Source: Escherichia coli (GTDB lineage Bacteria > Pseudomonadota > Gammaproteobacteria > Enterobacterales > Enterobacteriaceae). Taken from it: DNA of 64,000 bases. The position numbers and the translations under genes were made by a program. Location: assembly GCF_002854065.1 (NCBI RefSeq), contig NZ_CP024147.1. One strand, given 5' to 3'. Shown piece after piece: positions 45,705 to 45,727 of this stretch. The notes under the pieces are model-generated. The model ran no database searches. It had not been told where the DNA came from and saw nothing but the letters and a program-made list of their open reading frames with translations. The number at the start of each line of letters is the position of its first letter. The stretch's first letter is position 1.

Positions 45705-45727
45705 AAGAAGGATGTTGTAACTAAAGT
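45705..45727. other. TerB-like Tus-binding replication terminator site
   Basis: AAGAAGGATGTTGTAACTAAAGT contains the Ter core ATGTTGTAACTAAAG; ends 11 bp upstream of the tus ATG. Confidence 0.6.

Follow-up and report, generated by a model that had tools for sequence, protein, structure and literature searches.

TerB, the Tus–Ter lock and the autoregulation of tus have been textbook subjects since the early 1990s and 2006. In Escherichia coli K-12, TerB has the sequence AATAAGTATGTTGTAACTAAAGT and lies on the + strand at NC_000913.3 1684226-1684248, 11 bp before tus (b1610), which starts at 1684259. A legitimate Ter site is described as one that carries C6 and the inner core and has fewer than five mismatches (PMC8347550); in another study, the criteria are C(6) with the A(8)-A(19) core after it and a location no more than 50 bp 5' of tus (PMC8707476). 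Mutation of C(6) abolishes permanent arrest (PMC4499146), and the weak Ter sites are known to carry changes in the core or at position 6 (PMC8347550).

The TerC site of K-12 (ATATAGGATGTTGTAACTAATAT, NC_000913.3 1609157-1609179, + strand) was read from the genome; of the exact sequences sought in the literature, among them those of TerC and TerG, K-12 TerB was the only one that appeared in print. TerC is described as the terminator used most often and as one that forms a stable lock, and TerB of K-12 is considered to act mainly after a fork has gone past an unbound TerC (PMC8707476). In other Enterobacterales (Edwardsiella tarda Ter1; Salmonella, Proteus, Dickeya, Yersinia), a Ter with C(6) and the 12-bp core is likewise located within ~50 bp 5' of tus, whereas its sequence is 78-87% identical to that of E. 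coli TerB and in several species it forms the innermost barrier (PMC8707476). The tus-vicinal Ter is regarded as the ancestral arrangement (PMC8707476).

The site between rstB and tus

The stretch of DNA analyzed here (64 kb, hereafter the window) belongs to the E. coli chromosome and is syntenic with K-12 at ~1.64-1.70 Mb (rstA-rstB-tus-fumC-fumA). The initial annotation had described a 23-mer bearing the Ter core directly upstream of tus as a TerB-like fork trap, and both its exact coordinates and its strand were confirmed (Table 1). Compared with K-12 TerB, 21 of the 23 bases are identical. The only changes are T>G at Ter position 3 (window 45707) and T>G at position 7 (window 45711), and the mismatch count against the MG1655 reference TerB is thus two, under the limit of fewer than five. 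The core shows no mismatch and positions 20-23 are also intact, so that no Tus contact position in the core is affected. The G·C(6) pair is intact as well and is invariant in the seven aligned strains described below. A conserved C at position 6 had been expected, and it is indeed there, although on the - strand, the written strand having G; this holds for every Ter site.

Table 1. Features around the rstB–tus junction, with positions given in the window.
Feature	Position	Strand	Remarks
rstB, upstream neighbor	44361..45662	+	stop codon 42 nt upstream of Ter position 1
Candidate tus promoter	45677..45705	+	relaxed hexamer scan; 9/12 matches + extended -10 TG
TerB, 23-bp Tus-binding replication terminator AAGAAGGATGTTGTAACTAAAGT	45705..45727	+	orthologous position; two differences from K-12 TerB; position 1 = 45705, T23 = 45727
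C(6), cytosine of the Tus–Ter lock	45710	-	partner G(6) on +; role from PMC8707476, PMC4499146
12-bp Ter core A(8)-A(19) ATGTTGTAACTA	45712..45723	+	same in 7/7 aligned E. coli strains; definition from PMC8707476
tus, DNA replication terminus site-binding protein, 309 aa plus stop	45738..46667	+	PF05472, E = 4e-137, full length

The spacer between the site and the tus start codon comprises 10 nt (GGTTAATATT, 45728-45737), which places the A of this codon 11 positions past T23. The spacing in K-12 is equal and is worded in the literature as "11 bp upstream"; the distance of 11 bp originally reported for the window holds in this sense. The likeness to K-12 TerB therefore extends to the position between rstB and tus, the strand, the spacer, the promoter hexamers discussed below and all bases other than positions 3 and 7, where K-12 has T and the window has G. 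K-12 TerC has the same strand and polarity (it blocks the same clockwise fork), the same G6-G7 and the same core, but five of its outer bases differ (positions 2-4 and 21-22), it does not neighbor tus, it has no operator role and in K-12 it lies 75 kb closer to dif than TerB.

The defining sequence features of Ter in general and TerB in particular are found together at this locus: the G·C(6) pair, the core, fewer than five mismatches, the tus-vicinal position between rstB and tus, an intact Tus, and the polarity. Judged by its sequence and placement, the site should be called TerB proper, being its positional ortholog, and not merely "TerB-like": its flanks, its distance from tus and its strand are those of K-12. 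It is an ordinary element in its textbook position, already described and already known.

The unwinding that breaks G·C(6) occurs at the non-permissive end (PMC8707476, PMC4499146), and the position-1 side is therefore the non-permissive face; TerB in the window presents this face to the left (rstB side) and the permissive one to the right (tus side). The + strand of K-12 carries rstB, tus, TerB, and TerC alike. The window shares this strand and hence the orientation of K-12, so that it is the clockwise fork that is blocked; this polarity relative to dif is based on K-12 synteny, dif being outside the window.

With very high confidence, the site can be proposed to be the chromosomal TerB with its two known jobs, a polar fork barrier and a tus operator, both of which are carried over from the K-12 literature. 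Tus, made from the adjoining gene, would bind the 23-bp site as a monomer. When a left-to-right fork arrives (from rstB toward tus, i.e., the clockwise fork, already past dif and TerC), unwinding of the non-permissive end by DnaB would break G·C(6) at 45710, and the - strand C(6) would flip into the cytosine pocket of Tus, whereupon the complex would lock and the fork would stop. A fork coming from the tus/fumC side would instead meet the permissive face and displace Tus. As an operator, TerB would overlap the promoter and start region of tus, and bound Tus would repress tus transcription, so that Tus would stay scarce.

Tus, its candidate promoter and the weight of the proposed operator role

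The identification of the downstream gene as tus is well founded: besides the full-length PF05472 match, its product is identical at 308 of 309 residues to the chains of PDB 1ECR, 2EWJ, 2I05, and 2I06, the sole change being I23A. Residues I79, F140, H144, G149, and R198 are all present. Of these, the first four are reported to form the cytosine pocket of Tus and R198 to be a clamp residue (Mulcair et al. 2006; Elshenawy et al. 2015). Arg198 of Tus is also mentioned in a further study (PMC8707476). The tus start is identical in the RefSeq annotation of related strains. An in-frame GTG at 45726 lengthens the mechanical tus open reading frame by four codons; this GTG (45726-45728, Ter positions 22-23 plus one base) was rejected as the start codon, since the crystallized and RefSeq Tus begin with MARYDL at ATG 45738.

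A consensus sigma-70 scan of 45550-45850 found no promoter. The relaxed scan gave one candidate, composed of a -35 hexamer TGGTCA (45677-45682), a 17-nt spacer, an extended -10 TG (45697-45698), and a -10 hexamer TATAAA (45700-45705), and both hexamers are identical in K-12. The candidate -10 abuts Ter position 1 and overlaps it, and the start site would therefore fall inside the Tus footprint. These elements make TGGTCA-17-TGcTATAAA a putative tus promoter. For E. coli, terB has been reported to overlap the tus promoter or to sit within it, with Tus autoregulating tus (PMC8707476, PMC8347550, PMC10331603); these three papers cite Roecklein et al. 1991/1992 and Natarajan et al. 1991 for the autoregulation. 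Since the architecture of the promoter region is identical to that of K-12, autoregulation of tus through the TerB of the window would be expected to operate in the same manner.

A short distance upstream, the window has T where K-12 has C, which gives rise to a perfect TTGACA hexamer at 45659-45664 that overlaps the rstB stop codon and is common to Res13 and O157:H7. No -10 partner is found for it at 16-18 nt, and it is probably meaningless.

The balance between the two jobs deserves consideration. TerB could have been kept mainly as the tus operator, with a barrier that is rarely or never used, TerC catching the clockwise fork first. This would agree with the overlap between TerB and the candidate -10 and start region of tus, with the invariance of the stretch from Ter position 8 to the ATG in seven strains, which reaches beyond the Ter core, and with two statements in the literature, namely that the high conservation around terB is partly ascribed to terB lying in the tus promoter (PMC8347550) and that TerB most likely comes into use only if a fork gets beyond a TerC to which no Tus is bound (PMC8707476). 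[quoted passage not shown] An operator alone would not need an asymmetric G·C(6) that faces away from the gene. The two roles are also not mutually exclusive, and the distinction is more a matter of emphasis. A predominantly regulatory TerB is thus considered unlikely, and the reading of the site as barrier and operator together is preferred.

Natural variation of the site

To place the two substitutions among those of other strains, the window was aligned with six strains spanning 93-100% identity at the locus (seven sequences in total). Inside Ter, the variable columns are positions 2, 3, and 7, in addition to an extra A within 1-5, and everything from position 8 to beyond the tus ATG is invariant in the seven sequences. 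When a 341-bp query covering the rstB–tus junction was used, 5,423 of the 5,426 complete E. coli genomes were matched. These matches are chromosomal bar one plasmid place, and rstB and/or tus are annotated in all matches listed. That single match on a plasmid-classed record, the only one in tus/TerB junction searches spanning thousands of chromosomes, could stem from a mis-assigned replicon or from a chromosomal fragment on a plasmid.

The alleles were counted with 55-nt queries (window 45693-45747), a segment that holds no other variable position among the seven aligned strains. The K-12 allele (AATAAGT...) was matched exactly in 2,328 genomes, the AATAAGG... allele of ATCC 25922 and Nissle 1917 in 794, and the AAGAAGG... 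allele of the window in five of the 5,426. The AATAAGG 55-mer matched 5,386 genomes, and in all but two of them (5,384) the identity to the query is 95% or higher. The allele of ATCC 25922 and Nissle 1917 (AATAAGGATGTTGTAACTAAAGT) is the same as that of the window, including G7, except at position 3. On these counts, the window allele is best read as a rare one-step (T3G) derivative of the common AATAAGG allele. The exact 23-mer of the window was not found in the searchable literature, in which only K-12 TerB is printed, in three papers. We take TerG and TerI to have G7, as TerC does.

The substitutions fall where variation is common. In the survey of ter sites across phylogroups by Goodall et al. 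[quoted passage not shown] Because T3G and T7G both fall outside the base-specific contacts, they are expected to be functionally neutral. The zone T(3)-A(5) is where the replisome slows ahead of lock formation (PMC4499146), and T3G may have a small kinetic effect. A more consequential proposal is that the two extra G·C pairs of AAGAAGG, which flank C(6) and lie between the tus -10 and the start, alter the lock kinetics, or the strength of the tus promoter or its sensitivity to Tus. If true, the amount of Tus or the efficiency of arrest at TerB would differ in this lineage, but we consider such an effect quite improbable. The natural allele census is the only new detail of the present analysis: in some 5,400 genomes, variation is limited to structurally uncontacted positions, in agreement with the current understanding.

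It might further be argued that T3G and T7G together have weakened the site into a degraded or pseudo-Ter comparable to TerF, TerH, and TerJ. Both substitutions flank the locking base, the allele is rare (five of 5,426 genomes), and the slowing of the replisome at T(3)-A(5) precedes the lock (PMC4499146). Against this, G7 is common, being part of the AATAAGG allele in 794 genomes, and K-12 TerC also has G7 yet is a high-affinity, lock-forming, and heavily used site (PMC8707476). Position 7 lacks base-specific contacts, positions 1-5 are variable and uncontacted, and the core and G6 are unchanged, unlike those of the known weak sites (PMC8347550). A degraded site is therefore very improbable, and a functional TerB remains the preferred interpretation.

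The window was also searched for Ter-like sequences elsewhere. The K-12 TerB query with up to three mismatches matched only at 45705-45727 and in none of 100 shuffles, and the 16-mer AGNATGTTGTAACTAA, again with up to three mismatches, matched at TerB only. The 8-mer GTTGTAAC occurs three times, which corresponds to the chance level; its other copies (21300 and 62783, - strand) were rejected as Ter sites, as they fail the 16-mer test even with three mismatches. That the site itself is a chance Ter-like string without function could be argued from the frequency of the 8-mer alone, but the probability is negligible for a 23-mer with at most three mismatches, of which none is expected from 100 shuffles, that occupies the orthologous position, is conserved in essentially all E. 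coli and lies directly upstream of an intact tus.

Chromosomal context and other features of the window

TerB is flanked upstream by rstA/rstB (response regulator and histidine kinase); the downstream neighbors, fumC/fumA, lie on the other strand and encode fumarases of class II and class I, respectively. In a closely related genome, the gene order is Qin-type prophage, rspAB, ynf genes, mlc, pntAB, rstAB, tus, fumCA, manA, uid, and mal; in the record of that genome, fumA carries the annotation fumB. This order agrees with that of K-12 at ~1.64-1.70 Mb. Of 16 bins of 4 kb, 13 have a negative + strand GC skew, two a slightly positive one and one a value of zero; cumulatively, the skew declines to -0.77. 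This mostly negative skew indicates that the - strand is the habitual leading strand and that replication normally proceeds from right to left. The habitual fork would therefore meet the permissive (position-23, tus-side) face of TerB, which fits the logic of the fork trap.

Neither dif nor a skew reversal is found in the 64 kb, and the window thus flanks the fork-fusion zone. The initial placement in the replication terminus region is accordingly correct in the broad sense, in view of the K-12 synteny and the negative skew, but the fork-fusion point itself is outside. Other terminus signals offer little guidance. No matS site (GTGACNNNGTCAC) occurs in the window, a result that is uninformative given a matS spacing of tens of kb, and the one KOPS (GGGNAGGG) in the window is on the expected - strand, a single site being too few for strand bias to serve as a pointer to dif. 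TerB itself fixes the window on the side of the fork trap that blocks the clockwise fork, ~75 kb beyond TerC in K-12 terms, and its orientation shows which way replication normally runs across the window. Beyond annotation, this has little significance.

Several mobile elements were encountered elsewhere in the window. A lambdoid prophage remnant extends from position 1 to ~12500 and encodes a gpK-like tail assembly protein, minor tail proteins, a DUF1398 protein, a tape-measure protein (2444-4648), and a lysozyme (8169-8702). Its GC content goes down to 0.40-0.45 over 4-12 kb, and it ends in an IS3-family transposase open reading frame (11462-12508) that adjoins rspB. In related strains, this site holds the Qin-type prophage, from which the remnant differs in content. 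An IS2-like (IS3-family) element of 1331 bp follows at 17164-18494, bordered by a 5-bp target duplication (ATCAT, 17159-17163 and 18495-18499); it splits the lipoprotein gene ynfC on the - strand into the fragments 16892-17163 and 18495-18938 and is absent from the closest sequenced relative. For the region 1-18500, no complete E. coli genome covers at least 80%.

On the other side of TerB, an IS1 copy of 768 bp (54324-55091) is bordered by a 9-bp target duplication, AATCCGCAA, at 54315-54323 and 55092-55100. It is inserted in uidB (glucuronide transporter, - strand, start 56338) at about codon 413 of 457; the uidC open reading frame (52884-54149) is full length, with 421 aa. The junction between IS1 and uidB is covered in only 28 of the 5,426 complete E. 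coli genomes, for example in MRE162 and in strain 26561.
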